A stretch of 10,674 nucleotides of DNA, from the NCBI GenBank assembly GCA_041736175.1, contig JBGSUI010000045.1, positions 1 to 10,674 on the forward strand, read 5' to 3'. Positions 118 to 10,655 of the stretch are shown here, in pieces. Numbering within the stretch: position 1 is the stretch's first letter; every line of letters starts with the position of its first letter. The notes under the pieces are model-generated. The model ran no database searches. It was not told the DNA's origin and was given only the letters and a program-made list of their open reading frames with translations. The translations under genes and the position numbers were made by a program. The stretch comes from Oligoflexales bacterium (GTDB lineage: Bacteria > Bdellovibrionota_B > Oligoflexia > Oligoflexales > CAIYRB01).

Positions 118-660
118 TTAGGGGTGCTGGTAGTTCACCAGGACGGTTTTGATCTTAGGAGTTTCGATGGTTTGTTTGAGAAGGCGTGCTTCGTATTTGC
201 CATTCAGACGTCGGTGCAGCGCCCAAAAAATCCTTTTGAGATCATTATTGTTTAAAATGAAAGCCGCGTCTTCGATGGCCTCGAGCCCGCGCAAAAACTC
301 AGGCTTTTGCATTTCCTTGTTGGCCTGCTGAGGGTCATTGTCGCCAAAAAATCCAAATTGACTGAATTCTTCATTAAACCAATTAAAAGAAATGTCGGGC
401 CCCGTTTTTCTTCGGTCAGATTTGAAATAGACCGCGACTGATGCGTTGTCGTCTTTTAGATTAGAGAGATTTAGACCCCAAAAATTATCCGTGGAAAGAT
501 TCATCTCGACTTCAACGTCGCCAACCTTGGCTTTGACACTCTTACCTCTATTTTTTACAACCAGCTCGTTTATGGCTATCCAATACTCATCCATCGCAGG
601 ATTGTCTGTTGCAGCGACGACGCTGCCGTCCTGAAGGGAGCGCGGACGGACGCAGGACAT
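118..660 (-). CDS. Hypothetical protein of 180 aa with no recognised domain
   Basis: 180-codon ORF from an ATG at 660 on the minus strand. An AGGAA Shine-Dalgarno lies about 9 nt upstream. The ORF is followed by hairpin terminator structures. The protein shows no transmembrane segment and no motif I can assign. Confidence 0.6.
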   Translation of the reverse strand: MSCVRPRSLQDGSVVAATDNPAMDEYWIAINELVVKNRGKSVKAKVGDVEVEMNLSTDNFWGLNLSNLKDDNASVAVYFKSDRRKTGPDISFNWFNEEFSQFGFFGDNDPQQANKEMQKPEFLRGLEAIEDAAFILNNNDLKRIFWALHRRLNGKYEARLLKQTIETPKIKTVLVNYQHP

Positions 661-960
661 ATCGAAGGTTCCTGAAACGAGATCTTTGATCGGTTTTGTG
701 GGAGCTTAAAGCAGTTCATTTTGAGTCCTTCGGTTGCATGTATTTATTGTAGGAAGTAAATCCTTGAGAAACCACAGGGCATGCCGTGAGCAGAGGTTAT
801 GCAATAGACAGGCCAACCATGGCGAACAATCGATGCCAATGGTTGTTGCTTGGATTTTCTATATTGATTTATGCGAGTAAGCCCAAGGTCTGGCGGACGG
901 AATCTCCTCAAAAGTCCGATGGTCAAAGCGTTTGCGAGTGTACAATCAATGTACTAATGT

Positions 961-1012
961 GGCCATTGGCCTTGAGTCTGTGTTGAGACAAGGTTAAGAA
1001 CCAAAGAACCTA
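961..1012. repeat. 52-bp repeat, copy 1 (ggccattggccttgagtctgtgttgagacaaggttaaga[a/t]ccaaagaaccta)
   Basis: Matches 3800-3851 at 51 of 52 positions in direct orientation. It contains the GGCCATTGGCC dyad and an imperfect CCTTG...CAAGG inverted repeat. It lies about 280 bp upstream of the SPFH gene. Confidence 0.9.
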
Positions 1013-1045: not shown

Positions 1046-1112
1046 GTGGTCTCAAGGTCATCTGGAGTGTGGACAATCGATATTTAACCATCTCTTTGAT
1101 AAGTTTCCGAGG
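1046..1112. repeat. 67-bp repeat, copy 1 (gtggtc.caaggtc.tctggagtgtggacaatcgatatttaaccat.tctttgataagtttccg.gg)
   Basis: Matches 8308-8374 at 63 of 67 positions in direct orientation. It sits 33 bp downstream of 52-bp repeat copy 1. The hypothetical ORFs that cover the two copies are on different strands and frames, so conservation is at the nucleotide level and not protein-coding. Confidence 0.85.
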
Positions 1113-1280
1113 TGGGGAGCTTCGGCTATTGCCATCATAGCTCCTTAGGTTTACATGTAACAACCAATAATTGCTTTTTAATTTGCATCTCCTTGCTTTT
1201 GACGAGTCTTTTTCCTCAAAAGATGCTCTGTAAAACCCGACACCTTTATGTCTGCCAACCTTGGCAGAGCAGATTTCACC

Positions 1281-1286
1281 AGGAGG
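1281..1286 (+). promoter_or_regulatory. Shine-Dalgarno AGGAGG for the SPFH gene
   Basis: AGGAGG lies 7 nt upstream of the ATG at 1294. The TTG at 1261 used by the ORF track is probably not the real start. Confidence 0.6.
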
Positions 1287-1293
1287 ATTAAAA

Positions 1294-2343
1294 ATGTCTA
1301 TCGTTCAATCTCTAAAAAACCAACTCCGCTCCGTCATCGAGTGGGAGGGGTTTGACAGCAGCGCGGTACTTTGGCAATGGACCATCAACGGTGACGAAAT
1401 TAAAAACGCATCAAAACTTTTGGTAAAACCTGGTCAGGGCTGTTTTTTCCTCCACGAAGGAAAAGTTGAGGCTATCCTAACTGACTCTGGAACCTACACA
1501 CTTAAGACTGCAAATATTCCGTTTTGGACCACCGTATCAAAATTTATGCAGGCCTTTGAAAGCGAGCATAAGGTGGGAATCTACTTTTTTCGCAGCGGTC
1601 CCCTCGTCGATCAGAAATGGGGCACCACAAATCCCATCAAATACTTTGATGCCAAATACGAGCAATCTGTGATGCTTAAAGCCTTTGGAACCTATACCGT
1701 CCAAGTGTTGGAGCCAAAGTCTTTTTTAGAGTTTGTGGCGTCGGCACCGTCGTTTTCGGGGGAGCAGCTCAGGAGTGCTTTATTTTCGCGGCTGGAACAG
1801 TCTATCAAAGACAGCATTGCCGAGTGCCAGTTTGGCTTTGACGAGATTGATTCTAAACTTAACGAGATTAGCGCAAAAACCCGAGACCACCTAAATAACG
1901 ATGTGGCAAACTTAGGGTTTAAAATCACGGATTTCAGGATTAACGGTACGACCTTTGACGAACAGACCACAAAAAATATCCAAGAGATCTCTCGGGCCGC
2001 AGCCGAGGCCATGGCCGCCAAAAAACGAGGTCTCACCTACGCCCAGCAGGCACAGATCGATACGATGAAAATTGCGGCGGCAAACGAGGGGGGAGGGCTG
2101 GCCGCGACGGGAGCTCAGTTGGCTGCTGGTGTTGGGATGGGCCAAATGATGGCTGGAGCCATGGCTGCCAACCTGGCAGCATCCACACCACCCCAAGCGG
2201 TACAAACCCAGGTAAGCCAAAGTCCGCACGACGCAAACGAGCCGGTAAAGCGCCTTAAAAAACTCAAAGACTTGTTTGACGCCGGCTTGATCGATGCCCA
2301 GGAATTTGAGTCTAAGAAGAAGGAGATACTAGCAGATATTTAA
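1294..2343 (+). CDS. SPFH/Band-7 family protein (Band_7_1, YdjI-like) with a C-terminal SHOCT-type motif
   Basis: The N-terminus, MSIVQSLKNQLRSVIEWEGFDSSAVLWQWT, matches the characteristic start of YdjI/Band_7_1 SPFH proteins. A central coiled, Ala/Gly-rich linker follows. The C-terminal KRLKKLKDLFDAGLIDAQEFESKKKEILADI is a typical SHOCT bihelical motif. The start has a strong RBS. Confidence 0.85.
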   Translation: MSIVQSLKNQLRSVIEWEGFDSSAVLWQWTINGDEIKNASKLLVKPGQGCFFLHEGKVEAILTDSGTYTLKTANIPFWTTVSKFMQAFESEHKVGIYFFRSGPLVDQKWGTTNPIKYFDAKYEQSVMLKAFGTYTVQVLEPKSFLEFVASAPSFSGEQLRSALFSRLEQSIKDSIAECQFGFDEIDSKLNEISAKTRDHLNNDVANLGFKITDFRINGTTFDEQTTKNIQEISRAAAEAMAAKKRGLTYAQQAQIDTMKIAAANEGGGLAATGAQLAAGVGMGQMMAGAMAANLAASTPPQAVQTQVSQSPHDANEPVKRLKKLKDLFDAGLIDAQEFESKKKEILADI

Positions 2344-2382
2344 AGCGAGTTTACAATATGGTTCGGGTTTATAAAGGAAGGT

Positions 2383-3525
2383 ATGGCTATGGGTATGCGT
2401 GTAAAAAAACAACTAATCTATGAATTCTGGGACTGTCCCCAGTGCGGTGCTCAAGGCATCCTAGGGTCAGCAGAATCCTGTCCCCATTGCTCAAAGCCTC
2501 GAAACCAAAGCATCAAATTTTATCGGAAAAGCGACCAAGAGATCTTGGTCGAGCAAGAAAAGCTCAGCAGACACAGTGGAGGAGCTGACTGGATTTGTGA
2601 ATACTGTGATGGACTCAACGCCGCGATGTTGACCCACTGTGGTTCGTGTACCGCCGAAAAATCTGCAAATGCCAAGACCGTTGTTGACCCAGGGCCTAAA
2701 GACATTCCCCCTCCTAAAGTCGAAGCATTATCTAAAGGTCCGCCCACTAAAAGCCGACGGCGGTTGATTCTTGGTCTGGTGGTGGCATCAATCGCTGCTC
2801 TCTTATACTGGTCTATGGCTGCGGAAAAAAACACCTATAGGGTGGACCAAGTCTCCTGGAGTCGCAAAATAATCGTGGAGCGTTACGTGCGGGAGTTCCG
2901 AGAATCATGGGAAGATGAACAGACCGGTGACGACATATCGCTTCTCACCAAGAAATCTAAGGTCAGGTCCTACAAGGATGTTCTCGACCACTATAAGACC
3001 GAGACCTATTCCGAAGAGGAATCCTATCAGTCAGGTAGTCGCGAAAAATGCTCTACCGAGTATAAATCCACGGGCAATGGTGCTGCAGAAAAAATCACTG
3101 CTTGCCACGACGAGCCGGTTTATGCAACAAGGCAGATCACAAAAACCAGAGAGGTTCCCGTCTATAGAAAAGAGCCAGTTTATGCAAACTGGGTTCGGTA
3201 CCAATCAAGCTTTTATAAAGACCATCAGGTCTTTGAAAGCTCCGGGACAAACAATGCTCCCCAATGGCCTAAAACTAAATTAGGAACGGGGGTCTCGCAA
3301 AGACCCGACCGGGAAGGTGCGCGGGACGGTCTTTATCGAGTGACGTTAAGGAGAATGTCTCCCAGTAAAAAAGCGCCTCCTTCCGTCACGATCACGACGA
3401 TAGAAAAGCGATTTGTCGATCACTATGAGATCGGCAAAGAGATCGCTGTGGACTATCAAAATGTGGGCGGTCTGCAGTGGCCCGAGGGCGACAAGGAGGA
3501 ATCAAGCTCTACTGACAAACCTTGA
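2383..3525 (+). CDS. Double zinc-ribbon single-pass membrane protein (YdjG-like partner of SPFH/Psp modules)
   Basis: Two CxxC...CxxC zinc-ribbon units (CPQC..CPHC and CEYC..CGSC) lie at the N-terminus. One hydrophobic transmembrane helix follows (RRRLILGLVVASIAALLYWSMAA). The C-terminal domain of about 230 aa has repeated EPVY/VPVY motifs. The gene begins 40 bp after the SPFH gene with no terminator between them. The start could be the ATG at 2383, 2389 or 2395; the RBS AGGAAGG at 2373-2379 favours 2389 or 2395. Confidence 0.8.
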   Translation: MAMGMRVKKQLIYEFWDCPQCGAQGILGSAESCPHCSKPRNQSIKFYRKSDQEILVEQEKLSRHSGGADWICEYCDGLNAAMLTHCGSCTAEKSANAKTVVDPGPKDIPPPKVEALSKGPPTKSRRRLILGLVVASIAALLYWSMAAEKNTYRVDQVSWSRKIIVERYVREFRESWEDEQTGDDISLLTKKSKVRSYKDVLDHYKTETYSEEESYQSGSREKCSTEYKSTGNGAAEKITACHDEPVYATRQITKTREVPVYRKEPVYANWVRYQSSFYKDHQVFESSGTNNAPQWPKTKLGTGVSQRPDREGARDGLYRVTLRRMSPSKKAPPSVTITTIEKRFVDHYEIGKEIAVDYQNVGGLQWPEGDKEESSSTDKP

Positions 3526-3799
3526 GGTTGCTCTTGGATTTTTGAACGATCCAAAAGGGCTGTGAGTTCTGGAACCTCAGGTGGAAGAGCCGGAGTAAAA
3601 TCTTGGGCTTTGAGGGCGGTACCTGCCAAGATGATTCCTAGAAAAACAAAGGGATTTTAGAGTGACCAAGGTCCATTGAGAGTATCATCATGATAATAAA
3701 GATTAAAATCGAGTAAGTAGGGGTTTGGATAAATCCTCTATGTCGGCCTCTGGACGGGGCGGGGTCAAGACACTTTTAGCACGTCTTTGTATCCGGTGC

Positions 3800-3851
3800 G
3801 GCCATTGGCCTTGAGTCTGTGTTGAGACAAGGTTAAGATCCAAAGAACCTA
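3800..3851. repeat. 52-bp repeat, copy 2
   Basis: Matches 961-1012 at 51 of 52 positions. It lies about 70 bp upstream of the GTG start of the oppD-like gene. Confidence 0.9.
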
Positions 3852-3922
3852 GAGGGGAATCCCTAACAAGAGACTATCTCAACCTTCGAGACATCCGGGC
3901 CTCAAGAAAGGCAAAGCCACCT

Positions 3923-4981
3923 GTGACTGACCCCCTGCTTAAAGTCGACCAATTGGTCACATCCTTTAAAGTCGAAGCCGGAGTGCTCCGGGCAGTCGAT
4001 AAAGTCAGCTTTAGTATCAACCGGGGTGAGACGGTCGGGCTTGTGGGCGAATCAGGCTGCGGTAAGAGTGTCACCTCCCTGTCTATTTTAAGACTGATCG
4101 CCTCACCTCCAGGACTGATTGAGTCGGGTAAGATCCTCTTTGATGGCCAGGATCTCGCCCAGCTCTCCGAAGAAGAGATGCGAAAGCTGCGGGGAAACCG
4201 CATCTCGATGATCTTTCAAGAGCCCATGACGAGTCTTAATCCGGTGTTTACCATCGGTGACCAGATCGGCGAGGTCTTTAGGATCCACCAAAAATCATCC
4301 CGCGCCGAGGCTCGTAAAAAAGCCATCGAGATGCTCCACTTGGTCAAAATCCCTGCTCCCGAGGCACGGGTTGATGAATACCCCCACCAACTCTCCGGCG
4401 GCATGAGGCAGCGGATTATGATCGCCATGGCTTTAGCCTGTCGCCCCCAGCTGTTGATTGCAGACGAGCCCACGACCGCCCTTGATGTGACGATCCAAGC
4501 ACAGATTCTCGACCTGATCGAAAGCCTGCAAAAAGAACTCAATATGGCGGTCCTCCTGATCACCCACGACCTGGGTGTGGTGGCTGAGGTTTGCGACAAG
4601 GTTGTGGTGATGTATGCAGGTAAGGTAGTCGAACAGGGGACGGTGCACCAACTCTTTACCAATCCCCAGCACCCCTACACCCAAGGGCTGCTTCGCTCTA
4701 TCCCTAAGCTCGGCCATAAGTCCGAGTATCTGCCGACGATCGAAGGAACAGTTCCCAGTTTAGGAAATCTACCTCAAGGCTGCCGCTTTCAAACCCGATG
4801 CTCCCAGGTTTTTGACCGGTGTCGGACCGTGGAGCCTCCTTTGGTCCCTGTCCCTACGGGGTCAGGACCAACCCGCGACCTCGATGATTTAGGTTTAGGC
4901 CATGCCAGTGCCTGTTACCTGGTCCAAGGCGCAAGTGGACCCCATATCGACGGGAGGCCTGGTCATGACTCCACTCCTTGA
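3923..4981 (+). CDS. oppD: Oligopeptide/dipeptide-type ABC transporter ATP-binding protein (OppD/DppD-like)
   Basis: Walker [12 protein letters not shown] signature LSGGMRQR and Walker [13 protein letters not shown] are present, as is the oligopeptide-ABC C-terminal region ([17 protein letters not shown]). The gene uses a GTG start with an AAAGG RBS. Its 3' end overlaps the next gene by 17 nt. Confidence 0.9.
4952..4957 (+). promoter_or_regulatory. Shine-Dalgarno GGGAGG for the oppF-like gene
   Basis: GGGAGG lies 7 nt upstream of the ATG at 4965. This supports the internal start over the ATG at 4902. Confidence 0.55.
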
Positions 4982-5951
4982 AGTCCGCAACCTCATAAAA
5001 TACTTTCCTATCAAAGGGGGAGTTTTTGGCAGAGTCGTTGCCAAAGTCCATGCGGTGGACGGTGTCAGTCTGTCTATGCTGCCAGGCCAAACCTTAGGTC
5101 TCGTGGGTGAGTCGGGCTGCGGCAAGTCCACCTTAGGCCGGGCGATCCTTCGGCTGCACGAACCCTCCTCTGGCCACATTCAATTTGATGGTTGCGATCT
5201 CCTTTCGCTGACGACCAGCGAACTCCGTGCAAAACGTCGGGATATGCAGATTATATTTCAAGACCCCTTTTCCTCCCTCAATCCGCGGATGACCGTGGGA
5301 TCTATCCTCGCGGAGCCCTTTTTGATCCATAGGCTATGTTCAAAAAAGGAAACCACCCAACGAGTTAAGGAGCTATTAGAGACAGTTGGACTGCCTCCCG
5401 AGGCGGATAGCCGCTATCCCCACGAGTTTTCCGGTGGCCAACGGCAGCGTATTGGGATCGCCCGGGCGATTGCCCTTAGACCTAAGCTGATCGTTGCGGA
5501 CGAACCCGTCAGTGCTCTCGATGTTTCGATCCAATCCCAGATCCTTAATCTGCTGGTAGATCTCCGTAAAAAACTCCAGCTCACCTATCTTTTTGTGGCC
5601 CATGATCTCGCGGTCATCGAACACATCAGCGATTTTGTCGCCGTGATGTATCTGGGAAAGATTGTCGAATACGCCTCAAGCGAACAGCTTTACTTGAAGC
5701 CTTCGCACCCCTATACCAGAGCCTTGATCAGTGCCATTCCCGTCCCTAAAGTCAGCCTTCCAGGGACTCCTAAAAGACAGCGGCAGATCCTGATCGGCGA
5801 TGTGCCTAGCCCAATTAATCCACCTTCGGGATGTTATTTTCATCCCCGGTGTCCCCTGGCGACCGACAAGTGTAAGCAAGAGGCTCCGGCCCAACGCAAT
5901 ATCAGCGGCGCGGGCAAACCGCCCCATTTGGTTGCTTGTCATTATGCATAA
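4965..5951 (+). CDS. oppF: Oligopeptide/dipeptide-type ABC transporter ATP-binding protein (OppF/DppF-like)
   Basis: The N-terminus [19 protein letters not shown] is typical of OppF/DppF. Walker [10 protein letters not shown], signature FSGGQRQR and Walker [13 protein letters not shown] are present, with a C-terminal [12 protein letters not shown] motif and a CxxxRC..C tail. It is translationally coupled to the neighbouring genes at both ends. Confidence 0.9.
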
Positions 5952-7035
5952 CGTCCACCCTAGGCCAGACAAAACCCTGATCTGTCTCACAGGAGGCGGC
6001 ACGGCGGGGCATGTCACGCCTCATTTTGCATGGACGCCTTTTTTTGACAAACAAGGCTGGGATTATATCTATATCGGATCTCAGGGTTTAGAAAAATCCC
6101 TTGTGGAAGCCCAAAAGATCCCTTTCTATACCATCGCTGCGGGTAAACTCCGCCGCTATGCCTCCTGGCAAAACTTTACGGATCTCTTTAAAGTGGTCGG
6201 GGGGTTTTTCCAGGCATTTCGAATTTTAGGCCAAACCCGACCCAGCCTTATCCTGAGCAAAGGGGGATTTGTGGCGGTGCCGGTTGCTGTGGCAGGCTGG
6301 TTGCGGAAGATCCCGGTGATCTCCCACGAATCAGATGTATCCCCAGGACTCGCCAATCGGATCATCGCCCGGTTTGCCCACAAGATCCTCTACGCTTTTC
6401 CCGAGACAGCCCAATATATCAGCGGCGATAAAGGGGTATATGTGGGCGCACCGGTACGGGCTGACCTGGCCCTTGGGGACAAAAACCGAGCTGTCGCCCT
6501 GTGTGGATTCCAAGATTTTGACCCTAGCCTGCCGACGCTTTTGGTGATGGGCGGAAGCCAAGGGGCCCAGCGTATCAACGATGCTCTTAAGATCATATTA
6601 CCAACTCTTACCCAGTCTATGCAGGTGATTCACCTGACGGGCAAAGGCAAGACGATAGGCTTTCAGCATCCTCGCTATAAAGCTTTTGAGTTTGTGTCCC
6701 AAGAGTTTAAAGACCTCCTCGCCCTGTCGACCCATGTGGTTAGCCGTGCGGGGTCTAACTCCATCTTCGAACTCTTAGAGCTCCATAAGCCGATGCTTTT
6801 GATCCCTCTTGAGCTTGGAAGCAGGGGCGACCAAATCCTCAACGCCAACTCCTTTGCCCGCCAAGGCTGGTGTTTGACCTTAAGGGACAAGGATCTATCG
6901 GAGACGTCGCTCCTCGCTGCTATTAAACAGCTGATCGACCAGGGTCCACAGCTGGTCCTCAAACACCAATCCCGGCCCACCAGTCATACCTGTGATAGGG
7001 TAGTGGACGAGATCAAATCCACTCTTAAGATCTAG
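5944..7035 (+). CDS. murG: MurG-type GT28 glycosyltransferase (UDP-GlcNAc:undecaprenyl-PP-MurNAc-pentapeptide GlcNAc transferase)
   Basis: The N-terminal G-loop [15 protein letters not shown], the HESD motif, GAPVR, GGSQGAQ and SRAGS all align with conserved MurG motifs (GGTGGHVFP, HEQN, GNPVR, GGSQGA, SRAGA). The start ATG at 5944 sits in the sequence ATGCATAA, which overlaps the oppF stop codon. The longer form starting at 5800 in the ORF track is an upstream extension. Confidence 0.8.
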
Positions 7036-7169
7036 CCAACTCAGTGGGGATCAGGCCTGCCCAACTTCTCTAAAAGTGGCACCTGAATCTTCGCTTGTAA
7101 AGCATCTGAGTAAGGACCTGTCAATAAATAACTTGGACACTTTCTAATTAAATAGTCTATAGTCCAAGA

Positions 7170-8156
7170 ATGCTATCAGAACAATCAAAAAACCTAGATC
7201 GAATCCCAGATGTCATCGCCCTACTTGAAGAGATTGTAGATCCTACGAGCCGCGGCGATCCAGAATCTCCGCTTCGCTGGACTTGCAAGAGTGTCCGAAA
7301 TATAACGGAGTCTTTGAACATTAAAGGATATGCAATCAGCCGACAAACTGTAGCAAATATTCTCCATGAACTAGACTATAGTTTGCAAACAAACAGAAAA
7401 ACATCTGAAGGTAAGAAGGATCACCCAGATCGAGACCAGCAATTTCGTTTCATCATTAGTAAGGCAAAAGCCTTCCTAAATAAGTCTCTGACGGTTATTT
7501 CCGTTGACCCAAAGAAGAAGGAACTGATCGGCAAATATAAAAACGCGGGCCATGAATGGGAAAAAAAGGCATGTCAGTCAAAGTGCTAAGTCATGATTTT
7601 CCTGATCCTGATAAACCAAAAGCAGTTTCTTATGGCGTATATGACATTGGGGGAAATCTTGGGTGGGTCAAGATCGGCATCTCGGCGGACACTACTGAAT
7701 TCGCTGTTGAGAGTATCAAACAATGATGGAATTTAATGGGTAGAAAACGATACACGATGGCTCGAGAAATATATATTTGCGCGGACAGCGGAGGTAGCAA
7801 CGGCTACCGAATTCACCTTTGGAAATATGAACTACAAAAGTTTTGTGATACTCAAAATATTACCATCACCGTCTCATTATCTTCCGGGTACAAGTAAATG
7901 GAACAAGATAGAGCAACGTCTGTTTTCATATATCACCATGAATTGGTGTGGGCGGCCACTCACGGATTACAGAACTGTCGTTGATCTAATTGCAGCAACT
8001 ACCACTAAGATGGAGTTGATCGTCAAGGCACGTCTCGATAATAAAAAGTACAAAAGAGGCATTAAGGTTTCTGCCAGCGAAATGGCAAAATTAAATATCT
8101 TTCGCAGTACATTTCACGGTGAATGGAATTACACCATTTCACCTCGAAGTGTCTAA
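7170..8156 (+). pseudogene. Decayed ISAzo13-family (Rhodopirellula-type DDE) transposase relic, 5'-truncated and frameshifted
   Basis: Three successive reading frames carry family-typical segments. The first is ESPLRWTCKS..RQTVANILHELDYSLQTNRKT..HPDRDQQFRFI (7170-7589). The second is SYGVYDIGGNLGWVKIGISADTTEFAVESIKQ*W (7571 to about 7877), with a TGA at 7724-7726 where the family has a conserved Trp. The third is CADSGGSNGYRIHLWKYELQ.../HYLPGTSKWNKIEQRLFS...FHGEWNY (to 8156). This gives at least two frameshifts and one nonsense codon, and the N-terminal 70-100 aa of the family are absent. Confidence 0.7.
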
Positions 8157-8307
8157 GTTATTTCTTGAAAGGTCCTTAGCTTTTGCTGTACTCGCCTTGC
8201 CGGACACAATGGATTCCGTCAAGATCAAGCCAGCTTTTCTTTTTTTACCTTTCCTGGGGATATGGGTTTATGATCGGTGGGTTTGGAAACCTTGTCGGAC
8301 TTTTGGG

Positions 8308-8374
8308 GTGGTCGCAAGGTCTTCTGGAGTGTGGACAATCGATATTTAACCATGTCTTTGATAAGTTTCCGGGG
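8308..8374. repeat. 67-bp repeat, copy 2
   Basis: Matches 1046-1112 at 63 of 67 positions. It lies about 150 bp after the 3' end of the ISAzo13 relic. Confidence 0.85.
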
Positions 8375-8818
8375 GATAGGTTTGTTCAAGGGACACTGAA
8401 TTGACCCTTTGGCAAATTTGTATTCGCCCCTAGTCGGTCCCCGAGAGCCTCAATAACAGCAAGAGAGGGGTAAAAGCCCACGTGTTTGGAATAACCAGCC
8501 ATCATGATTTTTTGGTCTCGCTTCCCGCCATGGACTAGGGCAAAAGATGGAATCTTGTAATTCATTTAAAACTTTCTGATTGAAGTTGGGTAAGGAGTTT
8601 GGAATTGAAAATCCTGCTGTGGCCTGTGAAACGCAACTTGAGAAGGGTGATTGCTTGATTAGGTCTCTAAGAAAAGAGTTGGATGGTTGATGCCTTTTTC
8701 CATTGGCCTTCTTAGGGAGGTCCTTAGGTTGGAATCACGAGTCGATCCGGCTGCCCAGAAACTGACCATCATTTGTCCACGAAACATTTCGACTTGTTAT
8801 AACTTACCGTGACATAGG

Positions 8819-9160
8819 ATGAAAATAATTCCACTCGCTCCCAATCGTCAATGCGTTATTTCATTCGCAGTGCTTTTAAAGTTCTGGTTTCAAACAAACA
8901 AAAAGCTGTACTCACAGGTCCATAAAATAGTCATCAGAGAAATCCAACCTTATTACAAAAATAAGGCCATATCCCTAGGTGTCAAATATCCTCTGAATGG
9001 AACTAATTCCTACACACTGAGATTTGGATCAGACCCAAACTTAAACCAACAGAACCATTGCCTGGCGCTTGATGGCGTTTTCACTGATGTCGCTGGTGTC
9101 ATGCGCTTTTATAACACCCCTGCCATCCGCGATCAAGAAGTGGCCACACTGATCACTTAA
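8819..9160 (+). pseudogene. Fragment of an IS91/ISCR-family (HUH-Y2 rolling-circle) transposase
   Basis: The 113-aa ORF contains LRFGSDPNLNQQNHCLALDGVF...TPAIRDQEVATL. This matches the conserved RFGSALNLN-hHfH-LaLDG...aPT.aEvAtl block of IS91/ISCR transposases. The HUH histidines are degenerate here (NHC). There is an in-frame stop just upstream and no catalytic C-terminal half, so this is a truncated relic. Confidence 0.5.
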
Positions 9161-9290
9161 ATCAGCAACAAGGTCATAACGTCCCTTAAAAAGAAGTCTC
9201 TTGACTCTTCGTCGGAATTCTTGGGAAGAGAGGTAGTTTTGCTAAAAAATTCTAGTTTGAAGGTTCAAGTTTCCAGAGGTCGCCGACCAA

Positions 9291-10655
9291 CTACGGAACT
9301 ACGCAGCGCACCACAGTGGCGCTCTCAGAGCCGCTGAAGCTAGCCCCGGTTCCCGCCCACATCCAGTAATGATTAGAATAGTAAGTGCTGGCCGAAGACG
9401 TTCTGGTATTACTCATGCCCACAGACGGTACACCAGTGGTCGAGGATGACCAGCTAGGCGAGGCTGGGTCCGCAGGTTTGTTATCCACTGGATCGTTGGC
9501 AGTCGTCTCGTATAGGAGCGGCAGCCGCATTCCCTTATTGGCACAGGTTTGGATATTACCTTCATACCACGATGCACTATAGCTGGCACCACCGGCGGTT
9601 GTGTTCCAGAACCCTAAACGGTAGGCTCCTGCTGTGGTCTGATTGGTGTTGCCGTCATGGGCGGTGGCATCCAGACGCTGGCTTGGGTTTCCTTGATCGT
9701 AATATACACAACGCCCGGTCGCTACTCTATTGCCGTCATCGACATACACGTTTACAGGACAGACGCGACCACCAAGATTGGCCACGGTCCTATCGAGATT
9801 TGTGGCGCTAAAAGAGCGACCATTGGCGTTAAGCTTCAAATGCCAATTATCGGAACCATTTACCCGCAGCACGTTATTGCCGTCGGCCTGTACCCATATC
9901 CCCGAGGTAAGGACAAGAAGCTTGCCGCTTCCTGTATATGCCATGCCCGAATTCAAGGCAGCACTGGTCTGGTAGCAATCCACGCCGCAAAGCTCTGGTT
10001 TATCCCGGCTAGTGGTCCCTATCAACGATGTCTGGTACCAGGCAATACCATTGGAGACTAGCTGGACCAGAGCATTGGTTTGCAGAGTTATGGGCGCCTG
10101 AACCCCATCGATCTGGTCCGTGCCAGAGGGGAGGACTGTTGCCCAGAGCCCTGCACCTTTTACTGTGAGTAGATATCCCGCACCGGCACTTGCTGCAGTA
10201 GGGAGGGTCAGGGTGGTCCGGTTCCCTGTCACGATAAAATATTTGCCGCTGTCTCCAGCTGTCAGAGTATAGTCAGAGCTTTTCGTAGAAACACCCACAC
10301 TACCTCCACTAGCAGCCCAAGATAAGGATCCCGATCCATCCGTCACTAGTGCCTGGCCACTTGTCCCATCTGCGGCAGGGAGGGTCCAGATTTTATTGGT
10401 GGTGACAGAAGCAGGAGCCTTAAAACCTACATAGTGGCTATCGTCGTTATCCCCAAATCTAAGATCCGTAGCAGCTGTACCAGTTCCTGCCACCCGGATA
10501 TTGCCAGTGCTTGAGAGCTGGCCAGATGTGGCCACCACAGTGGAGCCCCCGATGGTCCCCGAGGTGATGGCAGAGCCAGAGACTTTGCCCGCAGTGCTAA
10601 TGGTGTCCAGTTTAGTATCAGCGATGGCGGCTGAGGCGTTGATATCCGTGTCCAT
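9291..10655 (-). CDS. Fibre/adhesin-like protein: phage-tail-fibre-like Gly/Thr/Ser-rich N-terminal region plus a DUF1566/Lcl-like lectin-type C-terminal domain. The 5' end may lie beyond the window.
   Basis: 454-aa ORF. The N-terminus ADTKLDTISTAGKVSGSAITSGTIGGSTVVATSG...LRFGDNDDSHYVGFKAPASVTTNKIWTLPAADGTSGQALVTDGSGSLSWA is a motif seen in tail-fibre or Bdellovibrio-type surface fibre proteins. The C-terminus CANKGMRLP...SWSSSTTG...VVRCVVP fits the DUF1566 pattern (C..G.WRLP..EL, YWSST, vRCVR). The reading frame remains open upstream of the ATG at 10655 all the way to the window edge, so the true start may be further 5'. Confidence 0.8.
   Translation of the reverse strand: MDTDINASAAIADTKLDTISTAGKVSGSAITSGTIGGSTVVATSGQLSSTGNIRVAGTGTAATDLRFGDNDDSHYVGFKAPASVTTNKIWTLPAADGTSGQALVTDGSGSLSWAASGGSVGVSTKSSDYTLTAGDSGKYFIVTGNRTTLTLPTAASAGAGYLLTVKGAGLWATVLPSGTDQIDGVQAPITLQTNALVQLVSNGIAWYQTSLIGTTSRDKPELCGVDCYQTSAALNSGMAYTGSGKLLVLTSGIWVQADGNNVLRVNGSDNWHLKLNANGRSFSATNLDRTVANLGGRVCPVNVYVDDGNRVATGRCVYYDQGNPSQRLDATAHDGNTNQTTAGAYRLGFWNTTAGGASYSASWYEGNIQTCANKGMRLPLLYETTANDPVDNKPADPASPSWSSSTTGVPSVGMSNTRTSSASTYYSNHYWMWAGTGASFSGSESATVVRCVVP

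Follow-up and report, generated by a model that had tools for sequence, protein, structure and literature searches.

A 67-nt direct repeat around an oppDF-murG operon is the coding tail of a DUF1801/YdhG gene, probably a relic of duplication and decay

Two described systems come closest to the situation in which the tail of a gene turns up twice in a bacterial genome. In E. coli K-12, the element e14 inserted at icd and left an icdC fragment, so that icd and icdC now flank e14 in a documented case of an attachment-site scar (PMC13626634). In the IS91/ISCR family, the DNA on the terIS side is co-mobilised when termination fails (PMC13181058). A third and more ordinary point of reference is the gene fragments and pseudogene relics of IS-rich bacterial regions.

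Here, we have taken an inventory of one window, by which we mean the whole stretch of DNA analysed, a complete 10,674-nt contig of a metagenome-assembled genome (MAG). Its repeats, genes and ISAzo13 relic follow one another in the nested order that the original prediction had set out, and the features on which the argument rests are the following:

958-1012, plus strand: 55-nt repeat, copy 1, 96% identical to 3797-3851 and 33 nt from the orphan fragment
1046-1112, minus strand: orphan DUF1801/YdhG fragment, codons 107-124 (PRKLIKEMVKYRLSTLQM) plus 13 nt past the usual stop position of the family
1294-3525, plus strand: SPFH gene (Band_7_1 + SHOCT) and zinc-ribbon membrane-protein gene (Pfam)
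3797-3851, plus strand: 55-nt repeat, copy 2, 71 nt upstream of oppD
3923-7035, plus strand: oppD-oppF-murG operon, between the two 67-nt copies
7111-8178, plus strand: decayed ISAzo13-family element with 49-nt inverted repeats at 7111-7159 and 8130-8178 (78%)
8308-8374, minus strand: 67-nt repeat, copy 2, PRKLIKDMVKYRLSTLQK plus 13 nt, continuous with the pseudogene body (repeat search, tblastn, alignments)
8321-8565, minus strand: DUF1801/YdhG pseudogene, codons 44-124 only, the first 43 codons missing (tblastn, DNA alignment)
8819-9160, plus strand: 113-aa internal remnant of a rolling-circle transposase (ISCR/IS91 family) of ~509 aa (NCBIfam NF052416)

The 67-nt pair lies in direct orientation at 1046-1112 and 8308-8374 with a spacing of 7262, and the predicted match at 63 of 67 positions (94%; blastn E 5e-20) is confirmed by our repeat search of the window and by independent assemblies. 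Mismatches fall at 1052/8314, 1060/8322, 1092/8354 and 1110/8372, leaving a longest exact run of 31 nt (1061-1091), and a 28-mer from the core, searched with up to three mismatches, occurs twice in the window against 0.00 expected from 200 shuffles. Both ends of the unit are sharp: gapped alignment of the flanks finds no similarity beyond the 67 nt on either side, and sensitive searches of the neighbouring DNA (blastn, tblastx) add none. Logan assemblies from two independent sequencing runs are 99.96-100% identical to the window; their contigs join the copy-specific variants of each 67-nt copy to its own right-hand flank and end at the 31-mer common to both copies, where the k-mer graph breaks. 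Because both right-hand junctions are reproduced in this way, the repeat is not an assembly artefact. We had considered contig breaks inside the 67-nt and 55-nt repeats as a sign of higher copy number and dropped the idea, since the exact runs of two copies (31 nt and 39 nt) suffice to cause them. A 24-mer from the core of the 67-nt unit has no exact match in genome, metagenome and viral collections, among which the source MAG is not included.

What is repeated over these 67 nt is the 3' end of a coding sequence, namely the final 18 codons of a small DUF1801/YdhG gene on the minus strand. The two copies share one open minus-strand frame, whose translation is PRKLIKE/DMVKYRLSTLQM/KTLRP. In a protein alignment, both place the residues of the repeat on C-terminal columns that vary little or not at all within the family (P, L, M, V, K, Y, R, L), and the motif encoded, conserved at the family's C-terminus, is P-x-x-L-[IV]-x-x-M-V-K-[YF]-R-L. 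At the DNA level, intact DUF1801 genes on unrelated contigs have 3' ends that match the unit at 81% identity, a resemblance that marks the unit as native to the gene rather than inserted into it. The original prediction had called the unit non-protein-coding, which is wrong as to its origin. That view pointed to hypothetical ORFs on opposite strands over the two copies, which are mechanically possible, but the frame that matters is the minus-strand one that both copies share. Codons account for the motifs flagged at the time: ATCGAT is part of TAT-CGA-TTG (Y-R-L), and TTGATAAGTTTCC complements the codons for R-K-L-I-K. In some sources, DUF1801/YdhG-like proteins (Pfam PF08818) carry the annotation 'iron chaperone'.

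A recognisable gene body still adjoins the right copy, and that body is a pseudogene. In tblastn with intact homologues, residues 44-88 map to 8565-8431 (frame -1) and residues 89-124 to 8428-8321 (frame -3), and an alignment to the intact DUF1801 DNA of L028 and L029 places a 2-nt insertion near 8430-8433 as the cause of the frameshift; no stop codon stands at the position usual for the family. Once the frame is corrected, the product is 78-80% identical to 124-aa PF08818 proteins over residues 44-124 (best E 1.8e-33), and its 45 protein matches (81-132 aa, 58-80% identity, E 1.8e-33 to 1.8e-23) carry PF08818 in all but one case (44/45). The Pfam DUF1801 profile is matched up to position 84/85 with 24.9 bits (E 2.7e-5), just below the 27.2-bit cut-off, and this score, like the protein alignment, was obtained with a reconstruction that included a spurious N-terminal part. 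That part, upstream of 8565, was discarded, as tblastn and DNA alignment both have the homology start exactly at residue 44.

The left copy consists of the tail and nothing else. Residues 107-123 of intact homologues map to 1112-1062 (tblastn, E 2e-4), and the DNA alignment with intact DUF1801 genes begins at codon 107. Neither a gene body nor any other DUF1801 piece was found in 661-1293 by tblastn, blastn/tblastx or six-frame Pfam searches, and no IS end or target duplication was found to mark the copy. The SPFH gene starts 181 nt downstream of it, the stretch around it (661-1293) is gene-free, as had been predicted, and the 33-nt spacer (1013-1045) described between the two repeats at this site is also there. 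Neither copy is an intact full-length DUF1801 ORF, the right one being truncated and frameshifted and the left one reduced to 18 codons. The four differences between the copies comprise two synonymous and two non-synonymous changes, with one derived residue in each copy, a number too small to show the absence of selection statistically.

The surroundings contain two wrecked mobile elements. The ISAzo13 transposase survives as several broken ORF pieces, with PF07592 matched at 7170-7589 (E 3e-41) and 7827-8156 (E 2e-34). The 67-nt unit, for which a remnant of a composite mobile element had been one proposal, shows no similarity to the inverted repeats of this element, which has its own 49-nt pair, and it starts 129 nt beyond 8178. 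The second wreck matches NF052416 at profile positions 126-212 of 509 (E 5.2e-7) and has the DUF1801 relic upstream of it, on the terIS side; six-frame Pfam searches of 661-1293 and 8566-9290 yielded no integrase or additional gene relic, the NCBIfam ISCR model being the sole match.

The neighbouring repeat, described before as 52 bp long, is present beside the left copy, and its length is 55 nt. Its first copy forms a modest hairpin (z -2.0), the core of which has no exact match in metagenome or viral collections (the source MAG is not among them). A reading of this unit as an integron attC site was dropped on sequence grounds, the core-site motifs being unmatched and the stem depending on G-T pairs. 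The SPFH/zinc-ribbon module that the 55-nt repeat brackets has a lower GC content and is missing from L030, a relative, and PADLOC returned no match for this gene pair or its neighbours.

The segment between and including the two 67-nt copies, 1046-8374, is not a unit. In L030, the single relative on which this synteny comparison is based (67-80% identity), oppD, oppF and murG are contiguous at 74%, 80% and 67% identity, the flanks are unrelated and the rest of the block is missing. The three genes have a GC content of 0.53-0.55 against 0.42-0.50 around them, and the bracketed segment as a whole is a mosaic (0.45/0.49/0.54/0.43). A composite mobile element, as had been suggested for this block, fits poorly with a conserved backbone operon inside it and a mosaic composition. 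Among GTDB genomes the nearest is an uncultured Oligoflexales MAG (MurG 58%), in which no other genes of the window lie near murG, and no contigs are on record for the window's MurG and its 180-aa left-flank protein.

From these observations, we consider it probable that the 67-nt pair represents non-functional relics of a duplicated and decayed DUF1801/YdhG gene in an IS-ridden region. The two copies would go back to a duplication of all or part of the gene in this genome lineage and would both have decayed afterwards. The right copy would have stayed joined to its gene body while losing the first 43 codons and acquiring the 2-nt frameshift; the left copy would have been cut down to codons 107-124 plus 13 nt and joined by rearrangement to the SPFH upstream region. 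We infer that duplication came first and that the 1112/1113 junction then arose by deletion or replacement; the adjoining ISAzo13 and ISCR/IS91 relics are the likely agents. A point against this account is that both copies lack the family stop codon and share the 13 further nt, which implies that the duplicated ancestor was already defective or had an unusual end. The route by which the orphan arose can only be reconstructed in such conditional terms, and neither copy is likely to have a present function. As leftover gene tails, the pair would be an ordinary rearrangement scar rather than a module for regulation or the end of a mobile element. The original prediction rightly recognised a real repeat within an IS-rich mosaic shaped by rearrangement, and the local segmental duplication that it named as a fallback comes close to this outcome; its specific proposals fail.

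The rival that survives best is itself a specific mechanism for the duplication step of this explanation. An ISCR/IS91-type element beside the DUF1801 gene would have missed its terIS and, by one-ended rolling-circle transposition, taken adjacent DNA to a second site; the mobilised DNA would have ended at the present 8308/1046, and a later deletion would have left only its distal 67 nt. The transposase relic at 8819-9160 (plus strand) with the DUF1801 relic upstream, on the terIS side, is in keeping with this route, which would also account for one of the sharp boundaries as the end of the mobilised segment. However, no IS remnant, oriIS or other similarity accompanies the left copy, the relic is truncated at both ends so that terIS and oriIS are not identifiable, the extra deletion is still required, and adjacency may be a coincidence in an IS-rich zone. 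We regard this route as unlikely.

An attachment-site scar is considerably less probable still. An integrative element carrying its own copy of the gene tail would have inserted at the DUF1801 3' end, so that the two copies would be attL and attR and 1113-8374 the decayed element. The geometry fits: of the two direct repeats, one runs on into the gene body while the other is an orphan 3' fragment, and the block of identity is imperfect (94%), begins inside the coding region and extends slightly past its end. Against it stands the content of the segment: 1113-8307 holds no integrase or recombinase, its ORFs being SPFH, zinc-ribbon, oppD, oppF, murG and ISAzo13 pieces; oppD-oppF-murG is the contiguous backbone conserved in L030, which lacks the rest; and GC is mosaic rather than uniform. 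Moreover, members of the 55-nt and 67-nt pairs alternate (55a, 67a, 55b, 67b), an order that two simple insertions cannot yield.

Stated broadly, the view that the copies are scars of a mobilisation using the DUF1801 3' end, whether by an integrase-less element of the icd/e14 type or by one-ended ISCR/IS91 transposition, carries only a small likelihood. Were it true, the 67-nt copies and the interleaved 55-nt repeat would record the grafting of accessory modules around an oppDF-murG backbone in an almost unsampled, Oligoflexia-like lineage.

The weakest rival, a functional shared module (promoter, operator, small RNA or small peptide) with selection keeping both copies, could appeal to 94% identity over 67 nt with sharp ends and to a left copy placed upstream of SPFH in a gene-free stretch, but we find it scarcely credible, as the promoter or operator originally proposed is not borne out by any sigma-70-like promoter or terminator-like site inside either copy, Rfam has no match at E<=1 in the whole window, each copy, on either strand, folds less stably than its shuffled controls (z +0.7 to +1.9), the right copy lies inside a pseudogene without a gene at a comparable downstream distance on either strand, and the conserved codons of the DUF1801 family fully account for the sequence.

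For annotation, a DUF1801 pseudogene (8321-8565, minus strand) and an orphan fragment (1046-1112) should take the place of the 'hypothetical' ORFs that cover the copies, and the region should be treated as decayed accessory and IS material around a conserved oppDF-murG operon. The case also shows that what looks like a non-coding repeat, in a stretch free of genes, can be a piece of coding sequence.

The phenomenon is of an already known kind, touching no new mechanism or open question, and its likeness to the three points of reference differs as follows. (i) As in icd/icdC-e14 of E. coli K-12 (PMC13626634), an orphan C-terminal fragment forms a direct repeat of imperfect identity that starts inside a coding region; unlike that case, the locus has no integrase, brackets a conserved backbone operon, is mosaic in composition, and has a 'target' gene that is itself a wreck. 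(ii) As in one-ended IS91/ISCR transposition (PMC13181058), a transposase relic is adjacent, and the DUF1801 relic sits on its co-mobilised side; unlike the products of that process, the second copy has no IS remnant, terIS and oriIS cannot be identified, and trimming to 67 nt would be needed afterwards. (iii) As among the gene fragments and pseudogene relics of IS-rich bacterial regions, a gene piece without a body occurs with a truncated and frameshifted paralogue nearby, amid decayed IS elements and with no sign of function, and the locus departs from such relics only in that both ends of the 67-nt unit are sharp and that the loss of the stop codon is common to both copies.

The 67-nt direct repeat, the 33-nt spacer between its left copy and a neighbouring 55-nt repeat, and the gene-free stretch of the original prediction (661-1293) were all borne out. 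A repeat search of the window, which is an entire NCBI MAG contig (10,674 nt), aligns 1046-1112 with 8308-8374 at 63 of 67 positions, with mismatches at 1052, 1060, 1092 and 1110 and a longest exact run of 31 nt (1061-1091). Sensitive blastn (word size 7) matches the two copies at E 5e-20, and a 28-mer from the core occurs twice in the window, versus 0.00 expected by chance. In the surrounding non-coding stretches, blastn (word size 7) and tblastx found nothing besides this repeat and the 55-nt pair (958-1012 and 3797-3851, 96 % identical), and exact matches to a 24-mer core of the 67-mer were absent from the genome, metagenome and viral collections. The repeat is no assembly artefact: two sequencing runs, independently assembled as Logan contigs, reproduce the window at 99.96-100 % identity. 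One contig (L001) links the left-copy variants (1092 C, 1110 A) with the SPFH gene, and two (L034, L035) link the right-copy variants (8354 G, 8372 G) with DNA on the right side. All three end precisely at the common 31-mer, as expected of two copies in a k=31 graph. Other features of the window are:

118-660, minus strand, predicted 180-aa protein
1294-3525, SPFH gene (Band_7_1 + SHOCT) and zinc-ribbon gene
7111-8178, ISAzo13 relic of ~1.07 kb, with 49-nt inverted repeats at 7111-7159 and 8130-8178
8819-9160, plus strand, internal fragment of an ISCR/IS91-family transposase (113-aa ORF; NCBIfam NF052416, E 5e-7, profile positions 126-212 of 509)
9291-10655, minus strand, predicted 454-aa protein rich in Gly, Ser and Thr, with backbone-like GC of 0.54

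Both copies are decayed tails of a DUF1801/YdhG gene, and their similarity has sharp limits: when both are aligned, with gaps, together with their surroundings (320 nt each), it ends abruptly on either side. On the minus strand one frame is open in both, reading PRKLIKEMVKYRLSTLQMTLRP on the left and PRKLIKDMVKYRLSTLQKTLRP on the right; upstream of the right copy, this strand encodes MNYKIPSFALVHGGKRDQKIMMAGYSKHVGFYPSLAVIEALGDRLG and, in a different frame, EYKFAKGSIQCPLNKPIPRKLIKDMVKYRLSTLQK. The joined right-hand product reaches the last positions of the Pfam DUF1801 profile (E 2.7e-5; 24.9 bits, just below the 27.2-bit cut-off). In a large protein collection it matches 45 proteins. Almost all are 114-132 aa long, 44 have PF08818, and the best match is at E 1.8e-33 and 78-80 % identity; the names given by sources are DUF1801 domain-containing protein, YdhG and iron chaperone. 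In the family alignment, the C-terminal columns that the repeat encodes (P..L..MVK.RL) are invariant or nearly so, and homologues stop one to three residues past ...RLSxL. With intact homologues as tblastn queries, residues 44-88 map to 8565..8431 (frame -1), residues 89-124 to 8428..8321 (frame -3) and residues 107-123 to 1112..1062 (E 2e-4), with no further credible piece anywhere in the window, 661-1293 included. Intact genes for DNA alignment came from two different contigs of one metagenome:

L028 6001-6372, intact DUF1801 gene, JGI sample 3300044712, ~80 % DNA identity to the window relic
L029 3345-3719, intact DUF1801 gene, JGI sample 3300044712, ~80 % DNA identity to the window relic

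Against these genes, homology in the right copy starts precisely with the residue-44 ATG, and the frameshift there comes from 2 inserted nt (CGACT-AG-GGG, about 8430-8433); in the left copy, homology starts at codon 107. The 67-mer is ~81 % identical to their 3' ends and is therefore native coding sequence rather than an insertion into the family. The motifs singled out by the original prediction are codons, ATCGAT lying within TAT-CGA-TTG (Y-R-L) and TTGATAAGTTTCC being the complement of R-K-L-I-K codons. The homologues' stop codon is missing from both window copies, which have 13 more nt in common before diverging; on the minus strand (8225-8323 and 954-1061) both have four extra codons (TLRP), so the duplicated ancestor was already unusual at its 3' end. 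Past TLRP each copy stays open for ~30 more, unrelated codons.

The copies are likely a duplicated gene relic without present function. They are 94 % identical to each other versus ~80 % for the nearest homologues elsewhere. A DUF1801 gene, whole or in part, would have been duplicated in the window's lineage; the right copy may then have lost its 5' part and gained the frameshift, and the left copy would have lost everything 5' of codon 107 as SPFH-upstream DNA joined at 1112/1113. Of the four differences in the DUF1801 frame, CCT/CCC and AGA/CGA are synonymous, E/D and M/K non-synonymous, and one residue per copy departs from the family consensus. The pattern is compatible with neutral drift of both copies, four differences being too few for a test. 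In other metagenomes, intact homologues have a flexible-genome context, with toxin-antitoxin genes and an IS as neighbours (for the L028 and L029 genes, toxin-antitoxin genes of ParE/Gp49 type and an rve-type IS). The phyla to which the named close homologues are assigned are several, which suggests a horizontally mobile small gene.

The block 1046-8374 does not behave as a unit. The nearest species-level genome, an uncultured Oligoflexales MAG, has a MurG only 58 % identical and no synteny. In the single moderately close relative compared, the metagenomic contig L030, backbone oppD-oppF-murG alone is kept, contiguous (74 %, 80 % and 67 % identical, respectively) between flanking genes unrelated to the window's and with no SPFH/zinc-ribbon pair, IS or DUF1801. 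GC is mosaic: ~0.45 at the left end, 0.48-0.50 in SPFH/zinc-ribbon, 0.53-0.55 in oppDF-murG, 0.42-0.44 in the IS/pseudogene zone and 0.54 in the last gene. The right-hand zone consists of truncated pieces one after another, the ISAzo13, DUF1801 and ISCR/IS91 relics; the ISCR/IS91 ORF is undetected by Pfam. The oligopeptide-type ABC ATPase genes oppD and oppF have no permease or binding-protein gene nearby. murG follows directly, overlapped by oppF, an arrangement (3923-7035; 1404-4683 in L030) kept in L030 at 67-80 % identity; in the window murG lies outside any cell-division or cell-wall gene cluster. The 454-aa and 180-aa proteins have no match in Pfam, NCBIfam or PADLOC.

The 55-nt pair brackets exactly the SPFH/zinc-ribbon module, whose GC of 0.48-0.50 is lower than the 0.54 of oppDF-murG and which L030 lacks. 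These repeats could mark an insertion, and the module would be excised if they recombined. Each copy is upstream of a plus-strand operon and carries a palindrome, GGCCATTGGCC, and a modest hairpin (z about -2). The metagenome and viral collections gave no exact match. The SPFH partner gene encodes a 380-aa protein that has zinc-ribbon motifs at its N-terminus and is predicted to contain a membrane segment, and neither gene matches the defence-system library.

The 67-mer is neither an IS end, nor a regulatory module, nor the boundary of a coherent mobile block. The proposed mobile-element remnant fails, as the unit starts 129 nt outside the ISAzo13 relic and is unrelated to its inverted repeats, themselves only 78 % complementary around a transposase in at least three ORF pieces (PF07592 matches), with no obvious target-site duplication at 7111 or 8178. 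A promoter or operator module, also proposed, is not supported. Neither copy contains a sigma-70-like or terminator-like site, the whole window has no Rfam match at E<=1, and for each copy, on each strand, the predicted fold is less stable than those of shuffled controls (z +0.7 to +1.9). Placement is not comparable: between the left copy and the SPFH start downstream of it lie 181 nt, whereas the right copy lies within a pseudogene with a comparable downstream gene on neither strand.

Two mechanisms were considered in more detail. A scar at an attachment site, as with icd/icdC-e14 (PMC13626634), fits the geometry, an orphan 3' fragment that directly repeats a gene-attached 3' end, but no integrase is present, the bracketed DNA is mosaic in composition and includes the conserved oppD-oppF-murG operon, and the two repeat pairs, 55-nt and 67-nt, are interleaved (55a, 67a, 55b, 67b), an order that two simple insertions cannot yield. 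One-ended rolling-circle transposition would draw on the neighbouring ISCR/IS91-type element, a family that co-mobilises terIS-adjacent DNA when termination fails (PMC13181058); the DUF1801 relic does lie upstream of the transposase relic, on its terIS side, but no IS remnant stands beside the left copy. The 67-nt repeat is real and its explanation ordinary: in a region scarred by IS elements, two relics remain of the tail of one small gene.
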